From an uncultured Chloroflexia bacterium (GTDB lineage Bacteria; Chloroflexota; Limnocylindria; Limnocylindrales; CSP1-4): a DNA stretch of 64,000 nucleotides. The stretch covers positions 2,208,001-2,272,000 of the forward strand of contig OY970218.1 in the NCBI GenBank assembly GCA_963713975.1, given 5' to 3'. Below, piece by piece: positions 42,697 to 62,981 of the stretch. Each line of letters starts with the position of its first letter. The stretch's first letter is position 1. The translations under genes and the position numbers were made by a program. The notes beneath the pieces were generated by a model. That model ran no database searches. It had not been told where the DNA came from and worked only from the letters and a program-made list of their open reading frames with translations.

Positions 42697-44541
42697 TCAC
42701 GGCCGATCGGGCAGAAAGATCGCCCCGTCGTTGGGGTCGAAGACGATGTCCCCGCCCGTGCCACCGCTCCAGGTCAGGTACTCCGAGCCCGTCCAGATGC
42801 CGGCCGTGGACTCGCGTCCGCTGGAGTCCTGGAAGGGAGGTGCACGATGGGGTGCCTGGGGCAGTTGGAGACATCGGTCAGTCGCGGGATCGTAGGTCGC
42901 GGCGATCCCGAGGACCCGGGTGCCGGTCCACACGCCGTCGTCCGCGACGCGCGGGCAGGCCGTGACCTTGCGCCAGGCCCCGCTCAGCGGGTCGATCGCC
43001 CTCCCGGCCTCGAGAAAGTACACCGCGTCCGCCCCATCGACGGCGAGGATCCCCGCCTCCAGTGGCGCCAACGGGATCACGTTGCGATCCATCTCGGTCC
43101 ATGCGAGCGTGCCGGGGTCGAACACGGCTGCCCGGACCGGGGTCGAACCATCACCGGGCTCCACGACCACCAGCCGATCCCTCGCGACGGCCCAGGTCGG
43201 CGAGTGGAGCTCGATCGGCGGAGAGGGCGCCTCAGTCCACCGGTCGGTGGCGGGGTCGTAGGCCGCTGAGCCGGCGTCGGTGACGGCGACCAGCCGGCCG
43301 TTGATCATCCGCGCGAACGACACGGCCGAGGCCTGCAACGGCGCGGTGGGCAAGCGGCGCCAGTCGTCGGTCATGGGGTTGTACGCGGCGCCGTCGTGGC
43401 GCGCGGCCCCATCTGGTCTCTGTCCGCCCCAGACCAGGACCTCGGAGCCCGACCACTCGACCGAGGGGTTGAGCCGACCCTCGATGGGAGCCGGCGACGT
43501 CCGCCGCCAGGCATCGTTCTCCACGCCGTAGGCGAGCCCGTACCGGACCAGGTTGGGTTCGAACACGGTGTGCTGGGCGTCAGACTCGGCACCGCCCCAG
43601 ACGAACGCCTCGCTGCCGGTCCAGGTCATGCCGTGACCCCTCCGCCCGCCGGTCGGCGCGATCGTCTGCCGCCAGGCCCCGCGGTAGACGAAGTCGGGAG
43701 GGTCGACCTCACGGTACGAGGACACGACGAACTGCTCCCGGCACCAGGTGGGGTCAGGAGCGAAGCAGTTGGGCCAATCCTCGTCGAAGCGGCCCGTCAC
43801 CTCGACCCAGACACCGTCGGGCAAGCGCTGTCCCGCCGATGCGACAGGCAGCGGAAGCGCAGTCAGGAAATCGGGCGACCCGTCGGCCGAGAGCCATCGG
43901 GTGAGCCGCGAGACGTGGTACTCGCTGGCGATGACCGGGCCGAACGTCAGCTCGCGGTCACCGAAACAGACGAGCCGCTCGAAGGGCTGGAGCTGCGCGA
44001 CGTCAAGGATCGACGCAACCCTGTCCGGGCATGTCGGCTGGTACGGCGTGGATGCAGCCGCAAGGCCGTCCGAGGACACGGTCGCGAACGTCGTGTCGGG
44101 CGTGAGGCCGTGCTCGAGATTGCCCCAGTGCTGGATGACCACCTGTTCCGTGCCGTCCGGAAGGGTGCGTTCCTCAGCGACGTAGACGAGCTGCCCGGCG
44201 AGGCCCGGCGCGAAGTCCTCGGTGAGGCGCCGGATCTCTCCGGCCGTCAGCGGCTGCCCCGCCCACTCACTCGCTGCCGCCGTCCCCCTTGGTTGTGCGA
44301 GGGGCGCAGCCGATGGCGCCGTCACATTGTCGAGAGCGAGCGGCGCGCGCCCGACCGTGATCGCCGCGGTCACGATCACGACCGCGGCGGCGGCGGCGGC
44401 GAGGAACCGGATGCGCAACGAGGGACGCCGCGCACGATCGGGAAGGGCGATCGACACCGCCAGGTCGGGGGGTACCGGGGGCAGCCGACCGTAGTGCGTG
44501 CGGAGGCGTTCCTCGAGGTTCTCGTCTGGCTCGTTGGTCAC
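42697..44541 (-). CDS. Putative anti-sigma factor with extracytoplasmic Kelch-like repeats
   Basis: LEERLR N-terminus; one TM helix; repeated WTGSE..VWGG and AYNP/AYDP..W; coupled to an ECF sigma gene. Confidence 0.75.
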   Translation of the reverse strand: MTNEPDENLEERLRTHYGRLPPVPPDLAVSIALPDRARRPSLRIRFLAAAAAAVVIVTAAITVGRAPLALDNVTAPSAAPLAQPRGTAAASEWAGQPLTAGEIRRLTEDFAPGLAGQLVYVAEERTLPDGTEQVVIQHWGNLEHGLTPDTTFATVSSDGLAAASTPYQPTCPDRVASILDVAQLQPFERLVCFGDRELTFGPVIASEYHVSRLTRWLSADGSPDFLTALPLPVASAGQRLPDGVWVEVTGRFDEDWPNCFAPDPTWCREQFVVSSYREVDPPDFVYRGAWRQTIAPTGGRRGHGMTWTGSEAFVWGGAESDAQHTVFEPNLVRYGLAYGVENDAWRRTSPAPIEGRLNPSVEWSGSEVLVWGGQRPDGAARHDGAAYNPMTDDWRRLPTAPLQASAVSFARMINGRLVAVTDAGSAAYDPATDRWTEAPSPPIELHSPTWAVARDRLVVVEPGDGSTPVRAAVFDPGTLAWTEMDRNVIPLAPLEAGILAVDGADAVYFLEAGRAIDPLSGAWRKVTACPRVADDGVWTGTRVLGIAATYDPATDRCLQLPQAPHRAPPFQDSSGRESTAGIWTGSEYLTWSGGTGGDIVFDPNDGAIFLPDRP

Positions 44542-45080
44542 GGCGCGATCCGTCCTGGGCGCGGCACGCCTGATCCGGGCCCTTCGAGCGCGGTGCGCAG
44601 GCGCGCGAGCGCAGATGCGAGACGGGACTTCACCGTGCCGACCGGGATCCCGATGGCGTCCGCGACGGCCTCGTGCGTCAGGTCGGCTCCGTAGTGCAGG
44701 GCGAGCACGGTTCGGTGCTCGACCGACAGCCGGGCGAGCGCGGCGGCGAGGTCAACGTCGCGCTCAACCCACGGGCGTGGGTCGAGCGACAGCGGCTCGA
44801 ACGGCAGGGGCTGGATCTCGTGCACGCGGGCGCCCCGACGGCGCCCGACGTCGCGGCAGCGGTTGACGACGATCCGGCGGAGCCAGGGTTCGAACCGCTC
44901 GGGATCGCGGAGCCTGGGCAGCTCGGACCAAGCCCGGACGAAGGCGTCCTGGGTCACGTCGCGGCCGTCCTCGGGACCAACGATCGACGCGGCGAGCCGG
45001 TACACCCAACCCTCGTTGTGTTTGACGAGTCGAGCAAAGGCATCCCGATCCCCATTCCGTGCACGGACGACGAGGTCCAG
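44538..45080 (-). CDS. ECF sigma-70 factor
   Basis: LVVRARNGDRDAFARLV, DVTQDAF, WLRRIVVNRCRD, GIPVGTVKSRL; start tentatively CTG at 45080. Confidence 0.88.
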   Translation of the reverse strand: MDLVVRARNGDRDAFARLVKHNEGWVYRLAASIVGPEDGRDVTQDAFVRAWSELPRLRDPERFEPWLRRIVVNRCRDVGRRRGARVHEIQPLPFEPLSLDPRPWVERDVDLAAALARLSVEHRTVLALHYGADLTHEAVADAIGIPVGTVKSRLASALARLRTALEGPGSGVPRPGRIAP

Positions 45081-45322
45081 CTGGCCGATCCTCCCTTGCT
45101 ATCCTTGACGCACGAACTGCTGAGATCGTTCGGCTGCTCAGCAAAGCACACGGGGACGTCTGGGGAGGCTCCTAGCGTGCCGCGCGGTGGCGATGCGGGA
45201 CTCTGGGGTCGGACGGGCGCGGAGTGCCGGCTTCTCTCTTGCTTCGGGGCATCGCGCCGGACCCAGGTCGCCGTCATCGCGGAACGAGGCCAGCTGCTCG
45301 ACCTGCCTCAGCACCGCAAGGG

Positions 45323-45367
45323 CCAGGGTTCTCCCCAATGGCCGCCCGCCGCGCCGACGCGTACGGT
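45323..45367 (+). promoter_or_regulatory. Putative NarL-type box plus -10 (copy 1)
   Basis: CCAGGGTTCTCCCCAAT-N22-TACGGT upstream of the large secreted gene. Confidence 0.65.
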
Positions 45368-45550
45368 TGAGCTCGTGATGGGGAACACGGGACCTCGCCG
45401 GCGGGGGGGGCCGGCGAGGCGCTCCTTGGTCACACTGGCAATCGCGTCGGAATCGAGCCATTCGGCCCCTCTCGCGCCCAGCGTGAGCCCGAAACTGTCT
45501 GGGTACAGATGAGCCGCGCGTCGGCCATCCAGCAGCAGGGGGTCCGCACT

Positions 45551-48500
45551 GTGCTCCGTCGCCTTCTGCCGGTCGCCACGGCGGCCTTGCTGATCGCAAC
45601 GCTCGTGCCCGTCACCGCAGGCCCGGTCGCGGCCACCGACCTGGCGGCCCCCATCCTGCTCCAGCCGGCCCCCGGCGCGTCGGTCAACGACACCGGCGTG
45701 CACTTCAGGTGGACTCGGGTTTCGGGCGCCGTCTCGTACCGGCTGCACGTGTGGTCGGTCGCCGAGGGCGAGGGGTTCGACCTCGTCGAGACCACAGCGA
45801 ACGACGACTTCGTCGCGTTTGCCTCGATCCCGACCGCGCTCCTCAACTGGTCGGTGACGTCCATCGATGCCCAGGGCAACGACGGGCAGACGGCCGCATC
45901 GACCTTTGCACCGGCAGATCCTGCCCCTGCCCTTCTGGGTCCGGTTGACGGCACGGTGGTCACGTATCCTGACGCGGGACCACAGTTGCGGGCGTGGTCT
46001 CGCCAGGCTCCGCCCTACTACTACTTCTACGACACCGATGTGGCCGGGCAGGGCGATCCGATGCCGGACCTCGGGGGCACCAGCGCCGAGCCGCGTCTCG
46101 AGCCCGGCACGTATCGGTGGACCGCGGGATATCCGGATCAGCATCACGACCATCCGGTGGCCGCCCCCGTGCGGACGCTGACCGTCGAGTGGCCCGAAGC
46201 GACCCCGCAGCTCCTGGAGCCGGCGGACGGCGCATCGGTCGTGGCGGGCGATACGGCGGTGCTCCGTTGGGGTTCCGTTCCGGGGGCGGTCGCCTACGAG
46301 GTCCAGTTCGATCGCGGCTCGGGGTTCGACGGCCAGCCCGTCATCGGGACGCCGATCCCGGCGTTCGTCCTCTCGGACTTGTGGACCGCGCAGACGCTCC
46401 GCTGGCGGGTCCGCCCGACGCAGACGCCCGCGGGGTTCCTGTGGCCGGTCCGCGGGCCGTGGTCCGAGGCGCGAACGATCACCGTCTCGGCGCAGGGCGA
46501 GATCACGGGGTTGTCGCCCGTCGATGGCGCCGCCGTCGCGAGCTGGCCCGTGTTCCGGTGGGATCCACTGGCGAACGCAAGCGCGTACGAGGTCCAGTTC
46601 GCGATCGACCCGGTCACGGGGCCGACCCAGAGCCGCGTGATCAATACCCCGGCGTTCACCCTCAAGGCCAACGGTGATTGGCTGGCACAGCTCGCAGCAG
46701 GCGAGACCTGGTGGCGGGTCCGGGCGGTCCCGGTCCTCTCCGTCGGGATCGCGAGCGAGTGGTCCTCGTGGCGCCACGTGACCGTCGAGTCGGCGGACGG
46801 CGTGCTGGGAGCGCCGGTTGCCGCAACCGGGATCGGCGCGGCCGCCTGTCCTGAAGGGGACGCGTGCGAGCCCCTGACCGGCTGGCCCATCCTCCGATGG
46901 GAGCCCGTTCGCGGCGCCGCCCTCTACCGGGTGTTCCTCCGCCATCCGCTCACGGCATCAGCGTACGGATACGTCGATGTCGCCGGCGCGGAGCTGGTCG
47001 CCGGACCCCTCGCAAGCCAGGCGTCCGACCCCGGCACGTCGAGGGCGCTGTGGTCGGTGGTCGCCTGCCCGTCATTGGTCGACTGCCCGACCGAGCCCGT
47101 CGGCGCGGTCTATCGCGTGGAGCGCAGCCTGCCCGCTCCGATCCCGGTGAATCCGGGTGACGACGCAACCGTTTACCATGCGGGCCAGGTGCTCACGTGG
47201 CTGCCCGTGCCGTCGGACCTTGCGAGTGGGCCCGATGAGGTTCTGCCGGCCCTCACGACGTGCCTGGAGACCGCCCGAACGCGCGATGGCGGCTCCACGA
47301 CCACGGCCACCAGGTGCTCGACGGCCACGAGCACGATCGTGGACCTCACCGATGATGCCGGCGTCGTCGAGTGGCGCGTCCGCGCCGAGGCCGGCACGAC
47401 GTTCCTGGCCGAACCCGGTGCCTGGTCGGCGCGCCGCTCGTTCCGCCACGCGCCGCCCACGCCGGTCCTGGATTCGCCCGTCGAGGGTGCGACCGTCACC
47501 GGCGCCCCCGTGCTCCGGTGGCACGCGGCACCCTCCGAGGTGCAGTACGGCGTCGACGTCATTCGCGAGGACGTGCATGACGCGTTCGGGTGGAACCTCG
47601 CCATGCGGTACGGGCCCGGTGGTGCCACCTCCATCCAGACCACGACGCCGCTCGCGCCAGGCGCCTATCTCTGGCGGGTGACATCCGGGGACAACGTGGC
47701 GACGGTCGGGCACTTCACTGTCGAGGGCACGACGGAGCTCCCTCTCATCGAACCGGCCGCCGGCGCCATCGTCCCGGCCGACGACGTCGACCTTTCGTGG
47801 ACCGAGGTTCCGTGGGCGAGGTTCTATACCGTGGCGATCGGGTCGACGCCCGACTTCTGGGGCATCGACGCCGTCTGGTGGGGCACGAGCCCGCTGCCGT
47901 CGCTGGCCGTGCCGGTACGCCTACCGGAGGGGCCGCTCTACTGGCGGGTGTGTCCGATGCTCGATGGGCTGAATGCCTCGGACTGCAGTGCGACCAACCA
48001 GCTGGCCGTGGGCGCCTCCGAGGTGCGGGCAATGACGGTCACGTCGGCGCTATCCGCGCGCGATCTCGCCATCCCGACATCGCACGGCCTGCTGGTGCAG
48101 CTCCGCCTCAATGCGACGATGTCAAGCACGGGCCGGGTCCCGCTGCGCGTGCGCTGGACGTCGTCCGACGTCGGCTCGGGCGTCGATGCCCAGGAGATCC
48201 AGGTCAAGCAGGACGACGGCTCGTGGCAGCCGGCAGCCAGTGGCCGCCTGACGGGAACCGCCTCCTACCTCGACCTCAACCTGGCCGCGGGGCACCGCTA
48301 CGACCTGCGCGTGCGGGCGACAGACCTCGCCGGCAACATCGGGGACTGGGCGTCCGCCCGCATCAGCCTTCGGCTCCGCCAGGAGACCTCGTCGGCCTGG
48401 AGATGGTCCGGCAGCTGGTCCCGGGTTCGCTCGACCGCCGCTTCGGGCGGGGCCTTCCGCCGCTCGACGGATCGAGGGGCGACCGCGAAGATGACCTTCA

Positions 48501-48736
48501 CGGCGAGGTCGGTCGCCCTGATCGCGCCTCGCTCGACCAGTCGGGGCAAGGCCGAGGTGTGGATCGACGGGACGAAGGCCACGACGATCCGACTGAACGC
48601 CAACCCAACTGGTGCCCGACGCGTGGTCTTCACCCGGAGTTGGGGCTCCGCTGGGAGCCACCGCATCAAGGTCGTGGTGCTTGGAGCACCCGCCGGCTCT
48701 CGCGTCGACCTGGATGCGATTGTCCTGGTGGAATGA
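45551..48736 (+). CDS. Large secreted protein with repeated Ig/FN3-like domains
   Basis: Signal peptide; repeated P.L..P.DGA.V...P.LRW..V.GA..Y.V and WRVRA...WS units. Confidence 0.8.
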   Translation: MLRRLLPVATAALLIATLVPVTAGPVAATDLAAPILLQPAPGASVNDTGVHFRWTRVSGAVSYRLHVWSVAEGEGFDLVETTANDDFVAFASIPTALLNWSVTSIDAQGNDGQTAASTFAPADPAPALLGPVDGTVVTYPDAGPQLRAWSRQAPPYYYFYDTDVAGQGDPMPDLGGTSAEPRLEPGTYRWTAGYPDQHHDHPVAAPVRTLTVEWPEATPQLLEPADGASVVAGDTAVLRWGSVPGAVAYEVQFDRGSGFDGQPVIGTPIPAFVLSDLWTAQTLRWRVRPTQTPAGFLWPVRGPWSEARTITVSAQGEITGLSPVDGAAVASWPVFRWDPLANASAYEVQFAIDPVTGPTQSRVINTPAFTLKANGDWLAQLAAGETWWRVRAVPVLSVGIASEWSSWRHVTVESADGVLGAPVAATGIGAAACPEGDACEPLTGWPILRWEPVRGAALYRVFLRHPLTASAYGYVDVAGAELVAGPLASQASDPGTSRALWSVVACPSLVDCPTEPVGAVYRVERSLPAPIPVNPGDDATVYHAGQVLTWLPVPSDLASGPDEVLPALTTCLETARTRDGGSTTTATRCSTATSTIVDLTDDAGVVEWRVRAEAGTTFLAEPGAWSARRSFRHAPPTPVLDSPVEGATVTGAPVLRWHAAPSEVQYGVDVIREDVHDAFGWNLAMRYGPGGATSIQTTTPLAPGAYLWRVTSGDNVATVGHFTVEGTTELPLIEPAAGAIVPADDVDLSWTEVPWARFYTVAIGSTPDFWGIDAVWWGTSPLPSLAVPVRLPEGPLYWRVCPMLDGLNASDCSATNQLAVGASEVRAMTVTSALSARDLAIPTSHGLLVQLRLNATMSSTGRVPLRVRWTSSDVGSGVDAQEIQVKQDDGSWQPAASGRLTGTASYLDLNLAAGHRYDLRVRATDLAGNIGDWASARISLRLRQETSSAWRWSGSWSRVRSTAASGGAFRRSTDRGATAKMTFTARSVALIAPRSTSRGKAEVWIDGTKATTIRLNANPTGARRVVFTRSWGSAGSHRIKVVVLGAPAGSRVDLDAIVLVE

Positions 48737-48739
48737 ACC

Positions 48740-48993
48740 CGCCGCCGACGGCCCAGCGCTTTGTAGATGCTCAGCCGCTGTCGGGCCTTCCCGGCGCCAC
48801 CCCCAGAAGGTCGCCCTCCGTCCCGCCGTCGGCGAGCCACATATGGGCGTAGGTGTGGCGGAACTGGTGAGGTGCAGGTTGGTGAGCCCGGCCACGGCGT
48901 GAGATAGGTCTTGATCGTGGCCGGGCTGCGGTCTACGGCGCGCAGGCTCAGGCGCCAGCTGTCGATGGCCGACCGGAGGTAGAGGTCCGGCAC
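48740..48993 (-). pseudogene. Internally deleted tyrosine integrase relic
   Basis: 48902-48977 matches the integrase 5' part (62640-62717) and 48808-48899 matches the HQFRHTYAH region (61947-62039); ~600 bp missing between them. Confidence 0.85.
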
Positions 48994-49024
48994 CCGGCCC
49001 CGCGCGTGGTACGGTTCCGGCCAC

Positions 49025-49063
49025 GCGGGAGTAGCTCAGCTGGCAGAGCGGCAGCCTTCCAAG
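49025..49063 (+). repeat. Duplicated 5' half of tRNA-Gly (left att site)
   Basis: 39 bp identical to 62906-62944, ending just past the anticodon loop. Confidence 0.92.
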
Positions 49064-49270
49064 TCTCCCGTTCCCGAGCGCTGTGCTCTGATCTCAGGAT
49101 TCCCCGTTCGCTGGCCCTGGTTCCGGGCGAATTTGGCGGTCTGGCCCACAGCGTGATAACAGGCCTTCAGCGCATAACGCGTTTTCGTCGCACAAGAGTC
49201 TGCGGGCGCCCATGACGATCTGGAGGGCTTGACAGGTCACCCTTGACGGTGCGCCCCGGACGGACCTCCG

Positions 49271-49930
49271 TTACTGTCCCGTGTTGGGCAGTCGAGGCGT
49301 GGGCGGGCGTGCTGTGGATCGGCCAGACCGTCGAAGCACGAGGGCCATGGCACCCAGTGCCCCCGTGATGAGAAACAAGAAGCCCGGCCACGGACCCTCC
49401 CGTGAGACGCGCTGGGCGCGCGCCGGAAATGCGTCCGTCGCCGGAAGCTCCGCGAGGGCGCGCACGCGGTTCTCCGACAGCTTCTGAACGCCCGGCATGA
49501 AGAACCGGTCCGGGCGACCCTCCACCCAGGCGACAGCGACGACTCGGTCGATCGATGCTCCTGGCTGGCCGGAGAACGCGAACGCCAGGACATCCCCGAC
49601 CTGCGCGTACAGTTCCGACTCGTCGCAGACCTTCATGACGTCTGCGAAGCGCGTCCCAGTCTCGACCCTGAAGCTCGCCGGGGCGTCACCACGCAGGACG
49701 TCGATCACGTCCACGCGGAACGTGGTCGTCTGCCCGTTGATCGGCATCACAAGGCTTTCGGCGACCCGGCCGAGGAGGATGGTCCCGGCCGCGGGCGCCA
49801 ACCTGGTGAACGCCGGCCAGCGGTCCGTCCTGGTGCACTCCGCATAGACGCCTGCGGTAGCGACCTGCGACGCAAGAGTCGCCAGGAGCATCGCCACGAC
49901 CCATCGAACCAGCCGACGCGGGTGCGTCAT
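49271..49930 (-). CDS. Secreted anchored protein, homolog of the IS passengers
   Basis: Signal peptide ending VYA-EC; LPATD then a TM helix then RRSGR; GGAGGGAG SD. Confidence 0.78.
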   Translation of the reverse strand: MTHPRRLVRWVVAMLLATLASQVATAGVYAECTRTDRWPAFTRLAPAAGTILLGRVAESLVMPINGQTTTFRVDVIDVLRGDAPASFRVETGTRFADVMKVCDESELYAQVGDVLAFAFSGQPGASIDRVVAVAWVEGRPDRFFMPGVQKLSENRVRALAELPATDAFPARAQRVSREGPWPGFLFLITGALGAMALVLRRSGRSTARPPTPRLPNTGQ

Positions 49931-49964
49931 GGATCTCCCTCCAGGGTGGTGCGTGGCCGGATGC

Positions 49965-51320
49965 CTACAGGCCACAGGTCGAGTCCGTGCACAGGGTGAT
50001 GGGCTCCCCGTACGAGCTCAACTTGGAGAACACCCACCCCATCGGCGAGTACCAGGCGCTGCCACCCGGCGGATTGGCGCTTGTTGAGTCGCTGTGGATC
50101 CCCCATGCCAGGGTCACGCCGCCGCTGGTCGTGAAGTACGGGGCTCCGCTGTCTCCCGGGCTGGCGTCGAAGTTGTCGACCCACTGGTGCTCGATGGCTG
50201 TGCCGTCGACGTCCTTGACCCTGTCTTCCAGCGTGAGGTTCCCGCACCAGAACCCGGTCGTCCTCCCCGATCGACAGAGATAGTCGCCCACGTTCTGGCT
50301 TGATGTCGTGACATAGCCCCCGACGGTGCGGATGTCATTCTCGCTCACGCCGAAGAGGAGATTGTCAGGGCCACTCGGGGCGGACATCGCGATCAGGCCG
50401 GCGTCAGCGTTGGACAAATTCCCATAGGTCTCCGTCCTCCCTGTTCCGATGTCGGTCCCGCTGTGGCGCCACATGCTGTTGAGCCCGCCGGTCGCGAGGG
50501 CCAGGCAATGACCGGCGGTCAGCATCCGATAGGTAGAGGTGCCCTGCCTGCGCACGACGAAGCCGGACGTGCAGATCGAGCTCGTATTGACCTGCTCGTA
50601 GATCTTGATGCCACCCTTCATGGGCCAGCAGTCGATGCGCGACAGGCACGCATCAAGGTGTGCATCGATTTCCTCCTCGACCGTCCCGACAGGACCGTAG
50701 CGGGATTGAAGCTCCGTGTCGGCCACCTCTGTCAGGCCGTTGACCCCCACCAGCACCTGGTTGTTGCGGATATCCAGACCCGCGCTCTGGATGTCGATGC
50801 CTGCTCTCGCGAGCTCGCCCCGCTCTCCCCAGATCGTGTGCTTCAACTGTTCCAGCTCGGCTCGAGCGTGACCGACTTCGACAAGGTCGTAGTCGACGCC
50901 GGGCGGCATGCGTTCCGCAAGGTCCGCCACCCAAGCTTGACGATCCTGGCCCGCGACCATGAAGACGGGCATTCCTCCGCGTTGCTGGTCCATGTAGACG
51001 CCCGCATACCCGTCGAGGTGGCTCGCGTATTCGATCACGGGATCAACCGCCAACTGGATCGCGATGCGTCGACCGATCTCCGCTGCCTCGGCCTCGGAGA
51101 GCGGGACGCCGTACTGGAGATCAGGGAAGGTCGAGTGGTCGGCGAAGGTCCCCCGAACAAAGTCCTCGTCCGACCGGAACCCCGCGGTCTCGCGGAACAC
51201 GATCGCCTGACCGACATCCGCCGCGGAAACTACGGTGTTAGCCAGTGCGCTGGATGGGGTACCGAACGACAGCGCCAAAGCCAGCAGGACGCCCAGCGGG
51301 CCCAAACGACCTTTCGGCAT
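49965..51320 (-). CDS. Secreted S1 (chymotrypsin-like) serine protease with propeptide
   Basis: CTSGF, TAGHC, DAG, SGRTTG and PGDSGAP catalytic motifs; signal peptide. Confidence 0.92.
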   Translation of the reverse strand: MPKGRLGPLGVLLALALSFGTPSSALANTVVSAADVGQAIVFRETAGFRSDEDFVRGTFADHSTFPDLQYGVPLSEAEAAEIGRRIAIQLAVDPVIEYASHLDGYAGVYMDQQRGGMPVFMVAGQDRQAWVADLAERMPPGVDYDLVEVGHARAELEQLKHTIWGERGELARAGIDIQSAGLDIRNNQVLVGVNGLTEVADTELQSRYGPVGTVEEEIDAHLDACLSRIDCWPMKGGIKIYEQVNTSSICTSGFVVRRQGTSTYRMLTAGHCLALATGGLNSMWRHSGTDIGTGRTETYGNLSNADAGLIAMSAPSGPDNLLFGVSENDIRTVGGYVTTSSQNVGDYLCRSGRTTGFWCGNLTLEDRVKDVDGTAIEHQWVDNFDASPGDSGAPYFTTSGGVTLAWGIHSDSTSANPPGGSAWYSPMGWVFSKLSSYGEPITLCTDSTCGL

Positions 51321-51411
51321 GACCTCATCCCTCTTTCCTGGTCCGGACCTTTCGTGACGATGACGATCAGCTCGGCTCGCGTTCGTGTCGGCACGTCGGG
51401 TGGTCCCGGCT

Positions 51412-51456
51412 ACCGTACGGCCCCCTGCTGCGCTCGGCCATTGGGGATTCGCCTAC
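51412..51456 (-). promoter_or_regulatory. Putative NarL-type box plus -10 (copy 2)
   Basis: On - strand GTAGGCGAATCCCCAAT-N22-TACGGT upstream of the protease. Confidence 0.65.
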
Positions 51457-51499
51457 TGGGCGAGCCCGCCGGGATGTGCGACGGTCGTGCTCGCGTCGG

Positions 51500-52123
51500 T
51501 CAACGCCGCGGCCGCGGTTCGGGTGGGATGTCGAGCCAGCCCTCCCGCTCAACCCGCAGGGCGAGCTCGGTCCGGCTCAGCGCGCCGGCACGCGTGAAGA
51601 GGTGCGACAGGTGCACCTCGACTGTCTTGCGTGAGAGACCGAGGTCGGACGCGATCTCGTCGTTGGTCTGCCCGCGCAGCAGGCCCGCCAGGACCTGCCG
51701 CTCGCGGTCGGTCAGCGGCGCCCAGGCCGCGCCGCCGGGGTCCGCCGGGTAGACCCAGCCGCCCGCATGCACCCGGCGGACCGCGTCCACGATGGCGTCG
51801 GTGCGGGTCGTCTTCAGCAGGTAGCCGCCCGCCCCGTGCCGCTGGGCCGCCGCCTGGTACAGCGGGTGGTCGTACTGGGACAGCATCAGGAAGCGAGGAC
51901 CTGCCAGCGTGGCGCGCGCCTCGGCGAGGAGCTCGAGCCCGGAGCCGTCGGGCAGCCGGACGTCGCACACGACGATGTCGAACCGTGTTTCCGCCAGCAG
52001 CTTGCGGGCCTCCCCCAGGGTGTGCGCCGCCAGGACCGGACCGAATCCGTGTTCGGCCCGCAGACGCCCCTCCAGCCGCTCGGTCACGAGCGGGTGGTCG
52101 TCGACGATGAGGATGGCGATCAC
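51500..52123 (-). CDS. NarL/LuxR family response regulator
   Basis: IVDDH, CDVRLPDGSG, YLLK; HTH LTDRERQVL..GQTNDEIASDLGLSRKTVEVH; GTG overlaps the kinase stop. Confidence 0.93.
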   Translation of the reverse strand: MIAILIVDDHPLVTERLEGRLRAEHGFGPVLAAHTLGEARKLLAETRFDIVVCDVRLPDGSGLELLAEARATLAGPRFLMLSQYDHPLYQAAAQRHGAGGYLLKTTRTDAIVDAVRRVHAGGWVYPADPGGAAWAPLTDRERQVLAGLLRGQTNDEIASDLGLSRKTVEVHLSHLFTRAGALSRTELALRVEREGWLDIPPEPRPRR

Positions 52124-53730
52124 GGCCGGCTCCAGTCCAGGGTCACAAGCGTGCCCGTCGGGGATGCGGCCCCGACCGCCAACGCCGCACCGACCGACGT
52201 CGCACGCTGGTGCATCGTCGCCATCCCGAGCCTGCCAGCGCGGCGGGCCGCCCACAGGTCGTCCTGCCGGATGCCGCAGCCATCGTCCTCGATCTCCAGA
52301 CGCAGCCGGTCGGGCCTGACGTCCGCACGGACGGTGATGCGGCTGGCCGAGGCATGGCTGATGACGTTGCCAACGGCCTCCTGCGCGATCCGGAAGGCGG
52401 CCAATTCCACGTCGGCGGGCGGACGCTCGTGCCTGGTGAGCCCGGTAGTGTGGGTGATGTCCCCGGCGATCGCGACATCCGCGTCGAGGCGGATCCGCGT
52501 CTGATCGACGAGCCAACCGAGCGCGGCATCCAGGCCGAGGTCGTCGAGCACAGGCGGCCGCAGCGCCGCGCTGACCGCACGCAACTCCAGCCCCGCCTCC
52601 TCGAGCAGCGTGATCGCGTCGTCGGCCGACCCGCCGTCACGCAGGCCGGCCACGGCGGCCGCCAGGACCTGGACCGGGCCGTCGTGGATCTCGGCCGCGA
52701 GCCGCGCCCGCTCCTCCTCGGTGGCGGCCAGCGCGGCCCGGTCCCGTACGCCGTCCGTCACCAGGTGCTCGACAATCGAGGCCAGGCGGGCGCGCACGAG
52801 CACATAGGCGGCGCCAGCGACCATAGCCGCCGCAACGGCCATCGGGACCGGCACGGCCGCGAGTGCGACCAGCGTCACCGTCCCGGCGCCGATCATGACC
52901 GCAGCCAGGACATCGAGGGCGCGCGGCGGGTTCCGGGTCGCCGTGTCCGCCGCCCAGCGGCGCCACGGAGCGGCCACGGCGAACGCGGTCACCAACGCGG
53001 CCACGGTCGTGGCCACGCGTGCGGCATCCGCCACCTGATAGACCGGCAGGGCCGCAAACCTGGCGGCCGTCCAAGCGATCGCCCCGGCAGCGGCCGCAGC
53101 CGGGACGACGGGCCAGAACCGGTACCGGGCAGCACCGACCACAAGCCACGCCGCGCCGACGAGCGGGATCGCGGCGAGCAGGGCCGTGGATGCTATCGGG
53201 GTGTTCGTCGCCGCTACCGGAACGGCAGCGACGAACGCCGCAGCGAGTGCGGCCGCGACCGCGAGCTCCCGGCGCAGTGGCAGCAGGCCCACGGCAGCAA
53301 GACAGAGGAGCAGGGCGGCAAGGGCCACGGGCACGGTCTGGCGCAGGACCTGCCGCTGCCCGGGGCCGCCGGTCGCCAGGATCGTGTCCGGAGCCGGCGT
53401 GACCTCCACCCGCCAGAGCAGCGGGGAGTCGCCGTTGAGAAACGCGACGAGCGCCTGGCCCTGGCGGAGACCGGTGTTCCAGGCCTGCCCGCCAGGCAGC
53501 ACCCAGCCGACCTCGAGGCCCAGCGGCTCCACCTGCACGTCACGGAGCGGGACGCCATCCCCCGCCATCGTGAGCGCCCACAGCGTGCTCACCCCGGCCA
53601 GTCCCACCGCCGCTGGCGCCAGCCACCGGCCCGACCGGCGCCCCGTGGTCCCGGGCGGGCGCCCACGAGGCAACTCACCAACCCCAGCATAGGGATTCCC
53701 CCAATCGCCTCGCACCTGCCGCTCCCTCAT
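52120..53730 (-). CDS. Polytopic HisKA_3 sensor kinase with N-terminal PDZ-like loop
   Basis: ERARLAAEIHDGPVQ, RIAQEAVGNVISHA, DDGCG, GRLGM; LEVGWVLPGGQAWNTGLRQG after TM1; about six further TMs; start uncertain. Confidence 0.88.
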   Translation of the reverse strand: MRERQVRGDWGNPYAGVGELPRGRPPGTTGRRSGRWLAPAAVGLAGVSTLWALTMAGDGVPLRDVQVEPLGLEVGWVLPGGQAWNTGLRQGQALVAFLNGDSPLLWRVEVTPAPDTILATGGPGQRQVLRQTVPVALAALLLCLAAVGLLPLRRELAVAAALAAAFVAAVPVAATNTPIASTALLAAIPLVGAAWLVVGAARYRFWPVVPAAAAAGAIAWTAARFAALPVYQVADAARVATTVAALVTAFAVAAPWRRWAADTATRNPPRALDVLAAVMIGAGTVTLVALAAVPVPMAVAAAMVAGAAYVLVRARLASIVEHLVTDGVRDRAALAATEEERARLAAEIHDGPVQVLAAAVAGLRDGGSADDAITLLEEAGLELRAVSAALRPPVLDDLGLDAALGWLVDQTRIRLDADVAIAGDITHTTGLTRHERPPADVELAAFRIAQEAVGNVISHASASRITVRADVRPDRLRLEIEDDGCGIRQDDLWAARRAGRLGMATMHQRATSVGAALAVGAASPTGTLVTLDWSRP

Positions 53731-53733
53731 CGT
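53689..53733 (+). promoter_or_regulatory. Putative NarL-type box plus -10 (copy 3)
   Basis: ATAGGGATTCCCCCAAT-N22-CATCGT upstream of 53769. Confidence 0.65.
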
Positions 53734-53768
53734 GACCGCACGACCACCACCAGCCAGAGGGACCTACG

Positions 53769-54293
53769 ATGCAGCCTCGTACCAGCATGCTCGCACTTCT
53801 GGCCGCAGCCGTGCTGGCCGTCTTCGCGGTCGCGACCGGGACAGCGACCACGCGAGCCACCTCGACGCCGGCGCCGGTCGCCGACCTCGCCGGCGTGCTG
53901 ATCCCGATCGGCGAGGTCGCGGCCCACTATTGCCACGATCTCGACTACCCCCGCATCCACTGCTTCGCCCAGCCCGAGGAGCTCGAGTCCGCCGTCAGCG
54001 CGACCCAGACGTCGCGCACTCTTCAGGTCGCCGCGGGTGCGCAGTACATGAAGCTCTTCGACCTCGCGGGCTACACGGGCACGTACATCATCCTGTCGCT
54101 TGACTACAACGACCTCAGCACCATCGGCTGGAACGACCGGGCGAGCTCATACATCGGTGTCAACAACCTCGCCTTCGGCCTGTGGACGGCCTGGTACATG
54201 ACCGGGAGCGGGATCGTGGGCTGCTGCAACCAGCGGGCGTCCTCGCTCTCGTCCACCTTCGACAACCAGATCAGCTCGACGCAGTTGCGGTAG
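53769..54293 (+). CDS. Secreted beta/gamma-crystallin-like / peptidase inhibitor I36-like protein
   Basis: Signal peptide; paired LF...YTG..DL..GWNDRASS and W..YMTG..L..FDNQISS motifs. Confidence 0.75.
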   Translation: MQPRTSMLALLAAAVLAVFAVATGTATTRATSTPAPVADLAGVLIPIGEVAAHYCHDLDYPRIHCFAQPEELESAVSATQTSRTLQVAAGAQYMKLFDLAGYTGTYIILSLDYNDLSTIGWNDRASSYIGVNNLAFGLWTAWYMTGSGIVGCCNQRASSLSSTFDNQISSTQLR

Positions 54294-54294
54294 G

Positions 54295-54696
54295 TCAGCA
54301 GGCGGGCGGCGGCGGCGAGGAGCCCGCCGGGTCGCCGGGCGGTGTCACGAACACGACCGCGAGGCCGGGCTCGAGCACCACATCCACGATGACGCCCTCC
54401 GGGACCGCGGTCACGACATCGGCGACCGCCGACCTGTCCTCGAGCGTGCGGACGACCCGCCAGTGCACCGCGAAGCCCGCCGATACCAGTGCCTTCTCGG
54501 CATCCCCCGGCGACAGGCGGGCCACGGCCGCGCAGTCCACGGGGGGCGCCGTTGGGGCCGAGGCGGCGCTCGGCGTCAGCATCACCGGGGTTGCGGCTAG
54601 CGAGCAGGCTGTCAGAAGCACTGTCGTGGTGAGCATGACGAGGATCCGACCCAATGAGCGCAGTGTGTTGGAAGGGTGACGGAGCCAGCGGGTCAT
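54295..54696 (-). CDS. Putative lipoprotein
   Basis: Hydrophobic stretch with lipobox-like LTAC. Confidence 0.55.
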   Translation of the reverse strand: MTRWLRHPSNTLRSLGRILVMLTTTVLLTACSLAATPVMLTPSAASAPTAPPVDCAAVARLSPGDAEKALVSAGFAVHWRVVRTLEDRSAVADVVTAVPEGVIVDVVLEPGLAVVFVTPPGDPAGSSPPPPAC

Positions 54697-54936
54697 GTGT
54701 CCGGAATCTACTCTAGGCGGTTCCTGCCCGGTTCCTTAGCTTATTCACTTCCCTGTCGGGCGCGCCAAACCACCCCGCCTCTTCCCGCGGTCGCCCCTGC
54801 TCCATGTCGATCCCCGCCCTATCGGCGGCGGCCTGATGTCGGACACGCTGCCACCGCAGGTGACGGTTGCACAAGCGAGTTGTGTGCAGTCCGCGTCTGG
54901 TCGTGCCAGGGCAGACACGCCCTGCAGTCGACGCCT

Positions 54937-55003
54937 ATAGGGTTCTCCCCATCCGGGGATAGGGGACTCCCCAATTGCACACCACGGACGACGCGACGAG
55001 ACT
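54937..55003 (+). promoter_or_regulatory. Tandem NarL-type boxes plus -10 (copies 4 and 5)
   Basis: ATAGGGTTCTCCCCAT (54937) and ATAGGGGACTCCCCAAT (54959) 22 bp apart, then N22-GAGACT. Confidence 0.7.
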
Positions 55004-55158
55004 CGCGATGGCTGTCCTAGGTGGGCACAACCTGATCATCCCAGCCGAGACGGACTCCCTCCCATGACCCCGCCATCGGGCGTCGGCACACAGGAAACGA
55101 CCGTCTGCAGCCGGCGCGGCCAACAGATACCGAGCCGCCACACGAAGGGAGCGCCAGC

Positions 55159-56001
55159 ATGAGACGTCATCGGTCGGTGTCTGTTCGCCTGCTCGCCGTC
55201 GTCGCCTCGGCCGTGCTGGTCTCCCAGAGTGCCGGAGCGACTCTCGCAGCAGGTCCGGCGGTCTCGCCGTCGCCTATCGCGACTGACTACCAATGGGCGT
55301 TCTGGGCGGACGGCCTCGCTCCACTCGCCAACGCCAAGCAGTGGGTGCTGCAGGGAACCAAACAGCCGTCTGGCGCGTGCGCCTATGACTATCCGACAGG
55401 CCCAACGGAGGTGCCCGCCGCCGGATGGGAGGCACGCAGCGTCGCCATCGACGTCGCGAACTGCGCGAAGCTTATTGAGGAGGGGCAGCCAACGGCATTC
55501 GCTGTCACCGAGAGAGGGCCGGGCACGTCCGAAGCTCTGACGGAGGGCAGCAGCGGAGTCGCGAGGACCCAGTCCGACGCCGCCGCAGCGACGAGCACGC
55601 GAAGCGCCTGGCAGAAGGTGACCTGGTACGACATCGTCAACCTGTGGCTCAACTACGACGTGACGCAGGTCACTTGGTCCTACAACGGGTCGTCGGTGAG
55701 CGCCGGATCCGTCCAAGGGTTCGTCGGCTGGCGCAGCGGCTCAGGCTGGGGCCTCGTCTACGCGCATCACGCCGGGTCCTACGGTGCCGGGAACTCATAC
55801 TATCTCGGCAACACGTGGAGCAAGATGGGCAACCCGATCTTCTGCCCTACGCCGCCGATCGTCTACACCGTGTATTCCTTCAATAAGGTGTGGGGGCATC
55901 CGAACGGGACGGCGACGCGCAGCCAGTCGAGCGACAGCATCGACGAGTGCCTGCCCTTCCACTTCGACATCCAGTCCGCGTACGGCACCTGGCCGGGATG
56001 A
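55159..56001 (+). CDS. Secreted protein of unknown function
   Basis: GAAGGGAG SD; signal peptide; two Cys pairs; aromatic/Gly/Ser-rich C-terminal half. Confidence 0.8.
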   Translation: MRRHRSVSVRLLAVVASAVLVSQSAGATLAAGPAVSPSPIATDYQWAFWADGLAPLANAKQWVLQGTKQPSGACAYDYPTGPTEVPAAGWEARSVAIDVANCAKLIEEGQPTAFAVTERGPGTSEALTEGSSGVARTQSDAAAATSTRSAWQKVTWYDIVNLWLNYDVTQVTWSYNGSSVSAGSVQGFVGWRSGSGWGLVYAHHAGSYGAGNSYYLGNTWSKMGNPIFCPTPPIVYTVYSFNKVWGHPNGTATRSQSSDSIDECLPFHFDIQSAYGTWPG

Positions 56002-56023
56002 GGTCGGCGGAGGGCCCGCGCCG

Positions 56024-56361
56024 GTGAGTCGTGCCCTGGTCCTCGGGCTGGTCGCAGGCGCGGTTGCCCCGCCCTCGTCTTCGTAGTCCTGCCCGTCATT
56101 GGGGTCCTGGCTGTCGGAGGGCTGCTCGTGGCCACGGCGCGAGGCCCTCGGCGATGGACGCTGAACGGAGCCCTGACTGGGCTTGGGGGCGTCTGGACCA
56201 TCCTCGCGGCCAAGGGGTTGGCCGATTGCGCCCCTACGGGTGACTGGTGTGGTCAGACGCCGTTGGTCCCCTTCATGGTGCTCGCGTTCGTCACGCTGGC
56301 ATGCGGCATCGCCTCGACCGTGGTGTCGCTTCGGCGATCCCGAACTCCGGACGGCCGGTAA
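56024..56361 (+). pseudogene. Small multi-TM membrane protein, frameshifted near 56070
   Basis: GGAGG SD then GTG MSRALVLGLVAGAVA; hydrophobic frame continues after a shift as ALVFVVLPVIGVLAVGG into ORF 56128-56361. Confidence 0.55.
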
Positions 56362-56531
56362 GGCCTTCGAGCGCACCGGCAGCCACCGGCGACAATGCGC
56401 CTTCCACTGGTGGCGTGGCCCATCGGACAGGCGCATGGGCGCGGCCTCCACGCCTCGAGTCGGAACGTCGTGCCGGCACCACGCCACTTGGTCAGCGTGC
56501 GCGCCCGCACGGGAGGCGTGAACAGGGCGCA

Positions 56532-57930: not shown

Positions 57931-58512
57931 TGCGTGGGGGGTGGTGTGGCAGCAACCGCCGGGTGCAGGAGGCGCTGGCCGATCACCCTGGCCTCGGCGC
58001 GATCGGGACCCTCACGATAATGGTGGCATCCGCAGGTTCAGAACCCATTCGGGTTGGCGAATGCGACTTCGACGGCGACCGTACGCAACAGCCGTACACA
58101 TGCCCCCGCTCCGAGGGTCTTGTCCGCCGTAGTCTCGGGGCAGCGGTGACAGGCGAGGCGCCGGTCGTCGCGGGATCGTCCCCCGTGGGGCCGGCGGCGT
58201 GCGCTGCGGCCCGGCGGCACGGGGCCGCGGCTGGAGCCCCTCCGGCAGCCTCTGGGACCGCCCGTGACGCCGGCCACCCGCCCCCAGACCGCCCGCGTCA
58301 GGCCCAGGCGTCCGAAACACGGGTGCCCCAGGGCCCACTATGAGGTCGCCCACCATGCTGATGTCGTCCGCTCCCCACCACGCCACGTCATCCCAGCCCA
58401 TCCGGTCCCGCGTCCCTGACCCTCACCGGGTCCGCGACGGGGGCATCGGGTCCGGATCCCTGCCCCGGGTTCCGTGCGCGGGAACGCCCCCGGAGCCGCG
58501 GGACCCCACACC

Positions 58513-59412
58513 ATGATCGGGACGTTCCGTCCGGCTCCCCATCCCGTCAGGCGTCGGGTGCTCGATCCCGGGTTCCTGGGCATCCGCGACCGCGCGGTCC
58601 TCGAGCTCCTCCATCGCGCCGACGTCGCCACCACCGGCCAGCTCGTCACCCTCGTCTACCGCCGCCGGCAGACGGCGCAGGAGCATCTCGTCGCGCTGTA
58701 CCGCGCGGGCTGGATCGAGCGCGCCGTCCTGCCACCGACAACCCGGGGTGGTGCCCCACTCGCGTTCCGGCTCTCCGCCCGAGCCCGTCGCCGCCTGGGT
58801 CTCGGTCCCCTCACGCGCGGACGCGCGGGCACGCAACTGCGCCACTCGCTCAACGTCACCGAGACCGTCGCCACCCTGGTCCGCATGGATCCAGCGGGCA
58901 CGATGTCCCACCCCGTCCGTGCCTGGCTCCCCGAGCGCGCCGCCGCCAAGGTCGGGCTGCGCGACGTGTTCCCCGACAGCATCGTCGCACTCGCCTTGCC
59001 CACGGGCTCGGCCGTCCTGTGCCTCGAGATCGACCAGGCCACCGAGCACGCCCCGGTCATCCGCGCCAAGCTCGCTCGCTACGAGCCGGCGCTGCGCAAC
59101 CGCCATGGCTGGGGCGTCCTGTTCGTCGTCGAGTCGCCGGTCCGCGCCGCCTATCTCGCGCGGGTGGGGCGCGAGACCGAGTGCGCCCATCGCCTCATCG
59201 GCAAGGCCTGGGTCACGGTCCTCGGCGACCTCGCGGCCGAGGGTCCTTCCGCCACGCTGCGCCAGATCACCCCGGGCGGCGGACGGACCACCCTCGCCGC
59301 GGTCCTGCACGACCCTCGGCCACGCAGATGCTCGACACCCGTCGGGAGCGACGCGTGGATCGAGCTGCTCGCCTTTGGCGGCGCGGAGGACACGGCCGAG
59401 GCGCTCGCGTGA
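58513..59412 (+). CDS. Replication-relaxation family protein
   Basis: RDRAVLELL..ATTGQL, LRHSLNV, PD, LEIDQATE and KLARY motifs. Confidence 0.8.
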   Translation: MIGTFRPAPHPVRRRVLDPGFLGIRDRAVLELLHRADVATTGQLVTLVYRRRQTAQEHLVALYRAGWIERAVLPPTTRGGAPLAFRLSARARRRLGLGPLTRGRAGTQLRHSLNVTETVATLVRMDPAGTMSHPVRAWLPERAAAKVGLRDVFPDSIVALALPTGSAVLCLEIDQATEHAPVIRAKLARYEPALRNRHGWGVLFVVESPVRAAYLARVGRETECAHRLIGKAWVTVLGDLAAEGPSATLRQITPGGGRTTLAAVLHDPRPRRCSTPVGSDAWIELLAFGGAEDTAEALA

Positions 59413-61831: not shown

Positions 61832-62779
61832 CTAGATCCGATCTCCCGGGCTCCGCTTCCGGTATGCCTCACGTGCCCGCTCGTCGGCCGCCGAGGCGCC
61901 GTAGCGGCTGAGCATCTGGCGGCTCTTCCAGCCGGCGAGGCGCATGAGGTCGCCCTCCGTGCCGCCGTCGGCGAGCCACATGTGGGCATAGGTGTGGCGG
62001 AACTGGTGGGGGTGGAGGCTGGGCAGCCCGGCCACGGCGCCGCGGCGCCTGAGCACCTGGAGGACGCCGCTGTCGGTCAGGACCCCGCGGGCGCCCAGCC
62101 ATAGCTCGTCGCGGCCGGCCTGCGAGTGCGACGCGCGGGCCCGCAGGTAGCGATCGATCGCCTGGGCGGTCTTGCTCCCGAACGGGCAGGCCCGGGGACG
62201 GCGGCCCTTGCCCAGCACGATCGCCACCCCCTCGTCAAGATCGACGTCCGCCAGGCGCAGGCCCGTGATCTCGCCCCGGCGCATGCCGGTGTCGAGCAGC
62301 ATCCGGACCAGGGCGGTGTCTCGCCGGGCTTCGAAGCCCGTCCCGGCGCAGGCGTCGAGGATGGCCTTGATCTGCTCCGGTCGCAGGATCGGCGGCGGTT
62401 CCTCGGGCACGATCGGCGGGGTCATCCTGGCCATCGGTGACTCGCGGACCTCGTCCTCCGAGACGGCCCACTTCCAGAACGCCTGCAGGCAGCGGTAGGC
62501 GAGTGAGACGGTCGCGGGTCGTGCCCCGCCGTCCTGGAGGGCAACGAGGAAGGCCTCGATGTGCTCGCGCCGGAGCCCCTCGAGCGAGGCGGGCATGCCG
62601 CGCTCGGCGAGGAACGCATCGAACCGGGTGGCCGCGTCGAGATAGGTCTTGATGGTGGCCGGGCTGCGGTTCGCAGCGCGCAGGCTCAGGCGCCAGCTGT
62701 CGATGGCGGACCGGAGCCCGAGGCGTGGCGGCCCGGCCGCCTCCGTTATAGTGGTCCTGGTGCTCGTCGGTCTGACCAC
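61832..62779 (-). CDS. Tyrosine recombinase / integrase
   Basis: [27 protein letters not shown] catalytic residues; adjacent to tRNA. Confidence 0.95.
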
Positions 62780-62905: not shown

Positions 62906-62981
62906 GCGGGAGTAGCTCAGCTGGCAGAGCGGCAGCCTTCCAAGCTGCATGTCGCGGGTTCGATCCCCGTCTCCCGCTCCA
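62906..62981 (+). tRNA. tRNA-Gly (anticodon TCC)
   Basis: 76-nt cloverleaf; acceptor GCGGGAG/CTCCCGC; anticodon loop CTTCCAA; GGTTCGA T-loop; encoded CCA. Confidence 0.97.

Follow-up and report, generated by a model that had tools for sequence, protein, structure and literature searches.

A 64,000-nucleotide stretch of DNA from an uncultured Chloroflexia bacterium (contig OY970218.1, positions 2,208,001 to 2,272,000; hereafter the window) carries genes for a sensor kinase and a response regulator that diverge from a gene for a secreted beta/gamma-crystallin protein, and two palindromes lie 22-23 bp apart between them. Boxes of the same kind precede four genes of the window, the crystallin gene among them, and all four products look exported when judged by eye, as the signal peptides of all window proteins were. 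These boxes are very probably the operator of a regulon that is activated by the linked regulator at 51500-52123.

By its domains this protein is a NarL/LuxR-type response regulator. It matched Pfam Response_reg (E 4.8e-19) and GerE (E 4e-17), residues D9, H10 and D54 were invariant in 41/41 sequences, and NCBIfam gave no above-cut-off match among the matches listed. The kinase gene has an uncertain start codon: the frame is open to 53730, and the TTG at 53673 was used. When the sensor part was searched as a profile, the top matches were PDZ proteins (best E 0.003), and the topology was also taken from a structure model; the whole-kinase fold search reached residues 309-517 only. PDZ_6 was matched in 15/54 kinase members, the window kinase giving no Pfam PDZ match, and HisKA_3 in 37/54.

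The crystallin protein was modelled with a predicted local distance difference test score (pLDDT) of 90. Its small N-terminal domain, in which Cys55 and Cys65 are invariant, is joined to the beta/gamma-crystallin domain by an Ala/Ser/Thr-rich linker that is not conserved. Residues 92-174 of the model matched a Ciona crystallin (Z 16.2, root-mean-square deviation (rmsd) 1.4, 81 residues aligned) and Protein S (Z 14.4, rmsd 1.3, 80 aligned), and in the model a two-Greek-key crystallin fold is present (Foldseek E 7.6e-6). The preliminary description of this DNA had called the protein crystallin/I36-like; the crystallin half of that label holds, and the other half is weak, the window protein scoring 13.8 bits against Inhibitor_I36 (PF03995; cut-off 21.1) with 30/54 members at E <=0.01. 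The calcium motif of beta/gamma-crystallins is N/D-N/D-x-x-S/T-S, and by our own patterns calcium-type motifs occurred at two sites, in 49/54 members each, which are predicted calcium sites. Weak whole-length matches of the model that reached the N-terminal domain were Nitrollin (Z 11.4, rmsd 3.8, 107 aligned) and a chain of the umbrella-toxin particle (Z 5.0, rmsd 5.1, 100 aligned). A small predicted lipoprotein gene, 54295-54696(-), converges on the crystallin gene and has neither a box of its own nor a Pfam match.

Predicted box-dependent promoters in the window

The preliminary description had listed five boxes, at 45323(+), 51456(-), 53689(+), 54937(+) and 54959(+), with the hexamers TACGGT, TACGGT, CATCGT and GAGACT placed 22 nt past the proximal boxes 45323, 51456(-), 53689 and 54959. 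A check of the sequence found all of these coordinates and strands exact. The box unit is a 16-bp palindrome, nnAGGG-N4-CCCnnn, and the -35 element begins with the last T of the 17-mer. The palindrome abuts a weak -35, which is followed by a 17-nt spacer and the -10, the geometry of a class II activator promoter (Table 1). The two boxes at 54937 and 54959, described earlier as a pair, are both present 22 bp apart, and the first, which lacks a -10 on either side, is better regarded as a helper box. As a promoter of the lipoprotein gene 54295-54696, box 54937 was rejected (score -10.5).

The window holds four matches to the strict pattern AGGNNNNYCCCCAAT, whereas 100 shuffled versions averaged 0.03 matches and never gave four, a post hoc comparison because the pattern was drawn from the window sites themselves. 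In the whole genome (3,624,741 bp) the pattern also matched four times, all at window positions 45325-54975, i.e., inside 10 kb; the motif is not common at random positions. With leave-one-out matrices, 14, 7, 6 and 2 of 7.25 million positions scored at least as high as the held-out window site. A non-circular box model was made from 52 training sites of other genomes only. In the window genome this relatives-only model gave 19 hits of at least 13 bits, with 45323 at rank 1, 53689 at rank 2 and 54959 at rank 15, and the protease box at 51456(-) reached 10.6 bits, under the threshold, owing to a C in its GGG.

The hexamer was compared with start regions in the first 1.5 Mb of the window genome, where TAnnnT peaked at -12/-13 before 61 of 674 ATG starts. 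TAnnnT is the housekeeping -10 of the window organism. A scan of 45000-56500 with the sigma-70 consensus found no promoters, which is expected because the -35 elements are weak and activator-dependent. The palindrome of the protease box also has a -10-like hexamer on the other side, and this putative promoter at 51441-51485(+) points antisense into the 3' end of the regulator gene, without a clear open reading frame (ORF) behind it; it might provide negative feedback. A similar antisense box with a -10 was seen in two relatives (L177 6341(+) and L158 169(+); L and G numbers are our labels for loci and genomes), and a back-pointing site within 1 kb was present in 4/45 relatives.

Table 1. Positions of the core genes, predicted promoters, cargo genes and island features in the window (bits, box-model scores)
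Feature	Position	Strand	Remarks
Core secreted crystallin protein, 174 aa	53769..54293	+	Signal peptide, Cys-pair domain, linker, beta/gamma-crystallin domain
ComP-like sensor kinase	52120..53673	-	First transmembrane segment (TM1), extracytoplasmic PDZ-like domain, six-seven more TM, HisKA_3, HATPase
Response regulator, NarL/LuxR-type	51500..52123	-	Receiver + GerE helix-turn-helix (HTH); Asp54 invariant
Crystallin promoter	box 53689-53704, -35 53705-53710, -10 CATCGT 53728-53733	+	Predicted start ~53740; 25.3 bits
Degenerate second box, 23-bp position	53666-53681	-	5.8 bits; points at kinase gene in relatives; no -10 match in window copy
Promoter of 45509	box 45323-45338, -35 45339-45344, -10 TACGGT 45362-45367	+	Predicted start ~45374; 29.1 bits
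Protease promoter	box 51456-51441, -35 51440-51435, -10 TACGGT 51417-51412	-	Predicted start ~51405; 10.6 bits
Possible antisense promoter	51441-51485 from box to -10, -10-like GACGGT 51480-51485	+	19.2 bits, rank 3; putative
Upstream helper box, 22 bp ahead of proximal box	54937-54952	+	18.0 bits
Promoter of 55159	box 54959-54974, -35 TTGCAC, -10 GAGACT 54998-55003	+	Predicted start ~55010; 13.9 bits
Secreted repeat protein, 1075 aa, weak Ig/fn3, cargo	45509..48736	+	Pfam matches below cut-offs
Secreted S1 protease with pro-region, alpha-lytic-like, cargo	49965..51320	-	His, Asp, Ser motifs present
Secreted protein with C-terminal membrane anchor, behind protease	49271..49930	-	No Pfam match
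Secreted cysteine-containing protein, 280 aa, no known family, cargo	55159..56001	+	One homolog beside module L173
Decayed integrase copy	48763..48978	-	81-92% nucleotide identity to parts of 61832-62779 region
Left attachment site	49025..49063	+	Exact 39-bp copy of 5' part of tRNA-Gly(TCC)
Replication-relaxation (relaxase-family) protein, island	58474..59412	+	Between the attachment sites
Tyrosine integrase, island	61832..62779	-	Between the attachment sites
tRNA-Gly(TCC)	62906..62981	+	First 39 bp = right attachment site

The three-gene core and its probable operator in relatives

The crystallin protein was matched in 62 of 401 genomes of the family, in 15 of 49 genera. Of the 79 non-self matches, 77 fell in 74 regions; these regions, the other two matches and two extra loci make up the 78 loci studied. 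A kinase match lay within 3 kb in 67 of the 78 crystallin loci, and 64 had a regulator no more than 4 kb away; next to 67 crystallin gene copies the kinase was upstream on the opposite strand, and the 11 loci without a kinase match include contig edges and partial homologs. The crystallin gene at 53769, first taken for one more target, is actually the conserved core partner of the kinase. Metagenome loci, retrieved with one crystallin member as the query because no part of the crystallin alignment was sufficiently conserved for the scan, had the kinase in 7/11 cases, the other four having fewer than 360 bases upstream. A phylum-wide draw of 401 genomes yielded the full-length crystallin protein in seven, the window genome included and all of this family, and two other genomes matched the crystallin part alone; the Atlas clusters nearest to the 174-aa protein were mostly from Chloroflexota where the phylum is known. 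By these matches the module is patchy within one family of uncultured bacteria. Clustering of 679 called ORFs from 69 loci gave just three common genes and no recurrent fourth gene, with a crude caller that covered ORFs of at least 50 aa and misses some genes; next after the core came an ABC ATPase (16/69 loci), a luciferase-like protein (10) and the S1 protease (7). No description of the crystallin-kinase-regulator module, and no paper on such a role of a microbial beta/gamma-crystallin, was found in the literature searched, which left most subscription journals and supplements outside its scope.

The upstream regions of relatives, 72 after exclusion of four weak or partial homologs and duplicates, were searched blind by de novo expectation maximization (EM). 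The window box was recovered in ~92% of the 72 regions, with a log-likelihood of 280 against 56-62 in three shuffled sets. When the core alone was scored, nAnnnT stood at the window spacing in 58 of 104 hits and in no more than eight at any other of 23 offsets, and it did so in both directions, crystallin-ward in 28/51 and kinase-ward in 30/53. The relatives-only model found 122 sites of at least 16 bits in 80 module loci (up to 52 of them training sites of the model) compared with 9-25 when the spacers were shifted. The -35 starts with a conserved T, TTG occurring in 40/122 sites, and this T is itself part of the model. None of 14 other kinase-regulator loci of the same genus had boxes. Because the boxes travel with this kinase/regulator family (122 sites against none in the 14 loci), the regulator at 51500-52123 is their probable reader, and the motif does occur near homologous kinase/regulator loci. 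The in silico data (spacing, 58/104; 122 sites in 80 loci) agree with the earlier proposal of a NarL/FixJ-type activator that abuts the -35; its supposed all-secreted regulon fared less well (see below).

The boxes might instead be read by another factor, either a LuxR-type regulator encoded elsewhere or the adjacent extracytoplasmic function (ECF) sigma factor at 44538-45005, and this is very unlikely. Such a reader would fit the operators of PAS-LuxR regulators such as PimM, which, as far as the accessible part of the source goes, share a 16-bp palindrome, a GGG-N4-CCC core and a -35 region position with the box (PMC9774167), and box-like hits at genome positions 826858 and 1665868 lie near further regulator-query matches. 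These two hits lack a -10 at the right spacing, though, the boxes are absent from the 14 other kinase-regulator loci, and the hexamer is the housekeeping -10. The ECF sigma factor was rejected as reader, since ECF matches were present in 5/78 loci only and are not recurrent in the module. The likeness of the core points to an ordinary LuxR-type mode of DNA binding; unlike PAS-LuxR regulators, the reader here has a receiver domain and no PAS, and the flanks of the box differ.

A second box lay 22-23 bp upstream in 57 of the 122 sites, with two or fewer at any other distance; this spacing explains both the 54937/54959 pair and the boxes that stand back to back between the divergent genes. Of the two halves of the palindrome, the left was the better conserved. 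Very probably, a dimer of the phosphorylated regulator binds the palindrome centred near -43.5 and recruits RNA polymerase with the housekeeping sigma factor, a second dimer occupying the helper box. Second regulators in L164 and L172 are box-driven and begin exactly at the predicted transcript start. A second full-length regulator converging on the first was seen in seven loci (L161, L164, L172, L238, L240, L241 and L243); six of the seven have their own box, those of L164 and L172 are leaderless, and they may act as modulators or anti-activators.

In relatives, e.g., L151, L163, L169 and L023, the kinase-directed -10 overlaps the first codons of the kinase gene, so that the induced transcript would begin inside that gene. 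The kinase-directed sites were in one phase in 22 of 23 cases; 11 had ATG/GTG at +1 or +4, and nine had TTG at -23. A start codon at the predicted kinase-directed transcript start was present in 0/23, many of these being training sites of the model. As a speculation, the left half of the box, which is -10-like, could be the basal promoter of the kinase, and the bound regulator could switch expression to a regulator-only message.

The cargo behind the boxes varies. In relatives the box-preceded genes encode S1 proteases, two RHS proteins (one with Tox-REase-7, the other in an operon), lactococcin-972-like, Amidase_6, BNR-repeat and further crystallin/I36 proteins, a PLD-family protein, a trypsin-nuclease fusion, DUF3892 and DUF2188 proteins and second regulators; 32 cargo proteins were scanned, and 14 had a Pfam match. 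Among the window targets, the S1 protease identified earlier stands (E 6e-10 to alpha-lytic protease), as does the crystallin fold, and the Ig-repeat call for 45509 is weak. A crude signal-peptide rule was positive at 19/58 sites against 46/300 in the background, with 7 of the 58 sites actually pointing at kinases and several calls wrong both ways. An all-secreted regulon, as first supposed, is consistent with the four window targets and not with the nucleases, DUF3892/DUF2188 proteins and second regulators of relatives; "secreted and conflict genes" fits the predicted cargo better. Two expanded loci, L181 (G190) and L188 (G317), carry several S1 proteases and several boxes, and L181 has two crystallin genes. 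Small secreted cysteine proteins behind boxes were found in L155 (10506-10799), L021 (5233-5541), L157, L167, L171 and L197; one is lactococcin-972-like, the rest have no Pfam match, and they are candidate new bacteriocins.

The crystallin protein as probable partner of the kinase

The secreted crystallin is probably the extracytoplasmic input of the kinase, acting through its PDZ-like and membrane part. This is suggested by sequence comparison, because the crystallin alone is kept while the cargo is exchanged and because it co-varies with the PDZ and TM parts of the kinase and not with the regulator HTH. In 41 triplets, with the signal of the cytoplasmic kinase part and the receiver removed and relatedness uncorrected, crystallin-domain distances gave partial correlations of 0.25 with the kinase PDZ and 0.28 with the TM part (0/999 permutations), and -0.08, no tracking, with the HTH. 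A complex prediction for kinase sensor residues 11-310 with the mature crystallin scored 0.32, 0.00 and 0.01; controls were not folded, and the scores speak neither for nor against binding. With the whole kinase as query the genome collection gave 80 generic kinase-domain matches, which were set aside. A model of the kinase sensor half matched 65 of the 401 genomes, 57 in common with the crystallin set, while five genomes had the crystallin only and eight the sensor only, five of the latter being weak partial matches in the PDZ part. As the sensor model was built from kinases adjoining crystallin genes in the same genomes, the informative part of the overlap is the scarcity of sensors without a crystallin partner. 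Two genomes, G020 (L021; 89% complete) and G015 (L025; 86% complete), have kinase, regulator and boxes and no crystallin match; G354, G134 and G268 likewise have a kinase sensor and no crystallin match, and all five are candidate eavesdroppers or decayed cassettes.

The reading we favour, with a probability of roughly 0.4, is that the crystallin is an activating autoinducer. Basal secretion would let the protein build up with cell density until the kinase phosphorylates the regulator, and the active regulator would in turn raise the crystallin together with proteases, bacteriocins, RHS toxins and other conflict genes. Such a loop would resemble ComQXPA or Blp, a folded, Sec-exported protein replacing the modified peptide. 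It is favoured because of the ComP-like sensor, the weapon-like cargo and the partner-less receptors. The fuller proposal, that the crystallin is a quorum-sensing pheromone for the PDZ-kinase/regulator pair and that a mobile cassette recruits weapons through the 16-bp box and may switch the operon transcript to a start inside the kinase gene, is rather doubtful.

We take ComA to belong to the NarL-type regulator family, as the regulator here does. As in ComQXPA of Bacillus, a PDZ domain lies between TM1 and TM2, followed by a multi-TM region and a cytoplasmic kinase part, and secreted products are the output; in the available part of the source the PDZ of ComP is the proposed binder of ComX, with an unclear recognition mechanism (PMC9620489). 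Unlike ComP (763 aa, 10 TM), the kinase here has ~517 aa and 7-8 TM, the partner is a 174-aa folded protein, the layout is divergent and the operator is different. Neither a ComQ isoprenyl transferase nor a short ComX gene was a recurrent neighbour among the 679 ORFs of at least 50 aa from 69 loci, a tiny peptide gene not being excluded. Blp and gallocin systems, within the part of the source at hand, likewise keep inducer, kinase and regulator in one locus (the inducer role being a candidate one here), have bacteriocin cargo, a motif just ahead of the -35 that is almost confined to the locus, and a second regulator in some loci (PMC8545106). Unlike them, the module uses a LuxR-type (GerE) HTH on an inverted repeat and not LytTR on short repeats. 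The ORFs of at least 50 aa included neither a short inducing peptide nor a recurring peptide exporter, the recurring ABC genes being plain ABC_tran/ABC-2 (16/69 loci). The module works like a three-component/quorum-sensing cassette, yet it fails ComQXPA and Blp on their defining genes.

A different role within the same regulon, which we regard as somewhat unlikely, is that of an inhibitory accessory sensor that holds the kinase off, as do CpxP, ExoR and reduced HbpS. Release would come from proteolysis of the linker, titration or a change in calcium or redox state, induction by the regulator would be negative feedback, and the cassette would sense competitors' proteases or envelope damage. As in CpxP-CpxAR, ExoR-ExoS-ChvI and HbpS-SenS-SenR, genes for a secreted protein, a kinase and a regulator occur together, here in stable linkage (67/78 loci). 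According to the parts of the sources that were accessible, cpxP is divergent from cpxRA, is induced by CpxR and encodes a secreted inhibitor (PMC6737893), the block of ExoS by ExoR is lifted by proteolysis (PMC4550343), and unmodified HbpS inhibits SenS (PMC4991794). The unconserved linker, the invariant Cys pair, the two calcium-type motifs and the weak I36 protease-inhibitor matches would suit such a protein. The kinase-regulator pairs of G020 and G015, however, have good boxes and no detectable crystallin gene and would be permanently on; the cargo resembles public goods and weapons rather than envelope repair, and the PDZ of the kinase is ComP-like, not a CpxA/ExoS-type domain. The accessory also differs in kind, being a beta/gamma-crystallin and not a Spy-like, Sel1-repeat or haem-binding protein, and the regulon is local, exchangeable and conflict-like.

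The crystallin could also be the founding effector only, e.g., an antimicrobial, a protease inhibitor or a calcium-binding surface protein, with a kinase PDZ that senses an unknown peptide or an exposed C-terminus; we consider this unlikely. Antifungal, killer-toxin-like and antimicrobial proteins have the same fold (ranks 26-29, Z 5-7), the ordinary cargo of L171, L180 and L189 includes other I36/crystallin proteins, and interlocked promoters, with boxes 22-23 bp apart, could keep the genes linked without protein contact. Against this, other cargo is exchanged freely (S1 protease in 7/69 loci) while the crystallin is kept across 15 genera at ~30% kinase identity, and variation in the crystallin domain follows that in the kinase's sensor part.

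Several points weigh against the autoinducer reading. The divergent, self-induced layout and the cleavable-looking linker would, by analogy with the partly available accounts cited above, fit an inhibitor of the CpxP/ExoR/HbpS type equally well. The crystallin protein is ~40% conserved, as is the kinase core, and is not hypervariable, unlike peptide pherotypes. The partial correlations, which are of modest size and uncorrected for relatedness, might reflect gene linkage, and the 57/62 overlap of kinase and crystallin is partly by construction of the sensor model. The shift of box flanks in a clade with a differing recognition helix of the regulator, which counts in favour of the proposed regulon, amounts to two changes on the tree. 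The kinase-directed promoter is odd and its -10 is absent in the window copy, which leaves positive feedback on the receptor hypothetical. The cargo is not all secreted, and the regulon, start sites and binding are predictions.

The data define a complete signalling cassette (partner, kinase, regulator, operator and predicted starts) in uncultured Limnocylindria (Chloroflexota). Many bacterial beta/gamma-crystallins have no assigned function. The protein here differs from other microbial members in its extra N-terminal Cys-pair domain and its fixed linkage to a kinase, and should it prove to be the ligand, it would represent an autoinducer that is a folded protein, and bacterial beta/gamma-crystallins would gain a signalling role. 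Even if it is not, the box would be a precise tag for new bacteriocin-like and other secreted conflict proteins in these genomes, and the cassette gives access to a ComP-type PDZ sensor together with a candidate for its protein partner.

The tRNA-Gly island and neighbouring genes

The module, the relaxase-family gene and the integrase gene lie between the 39-bp repeats at 49025 and 62906, and by this arrangement the window module sits on a tRNA-Gly island. The gene at 45509 and its box are probably on an older island, because they lie left of the attachment-site copy, beside a decayed copy of the same integrase. Mobility is apparent from the sequence for the window locus only; elsewhere the patchy distribution and occasional hits to relaxases, integrases and partial tRNAs suggest it, and there was no general tRNA enrichment around modules (a tRNA-like hit in 9/43 long loci against 36/200 random windows). 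Island passengers include a gene for an AAA_14 ATPase in two pieces and a two-gene pair, at 56532-57808(-) and 59898-61594(-); the first product of the pair is nucleotidyltransferase-like, and by eye the pair resembles a type IV toxin-antitoxin pair.

The ECF sigma gene (44538-45005), whose N-terminus looks short, and a gene for a membrane-anchored Kelch protein occupy 42697-45005(-) and are divergent from the 45323 box; Kelch proteins also adjoin modules L181, L188 and L195. An Rfam scan of the window matched the tRNA alone. The leader of 45509 contains, at ~45391-45417 and directly past the predicted start, a strong GC hairpin with a 10-bp stem and a G-run loop, which had no Rfam match. Another, longer repeat, whose start is weakly box-like, was found at window 16428(+)/18757(-) and at genome 3369966/3372295; at each of these two places it forms an inverted pair with the copies 2329 bases apart, and it resembles the ends of a repeated mobile element.

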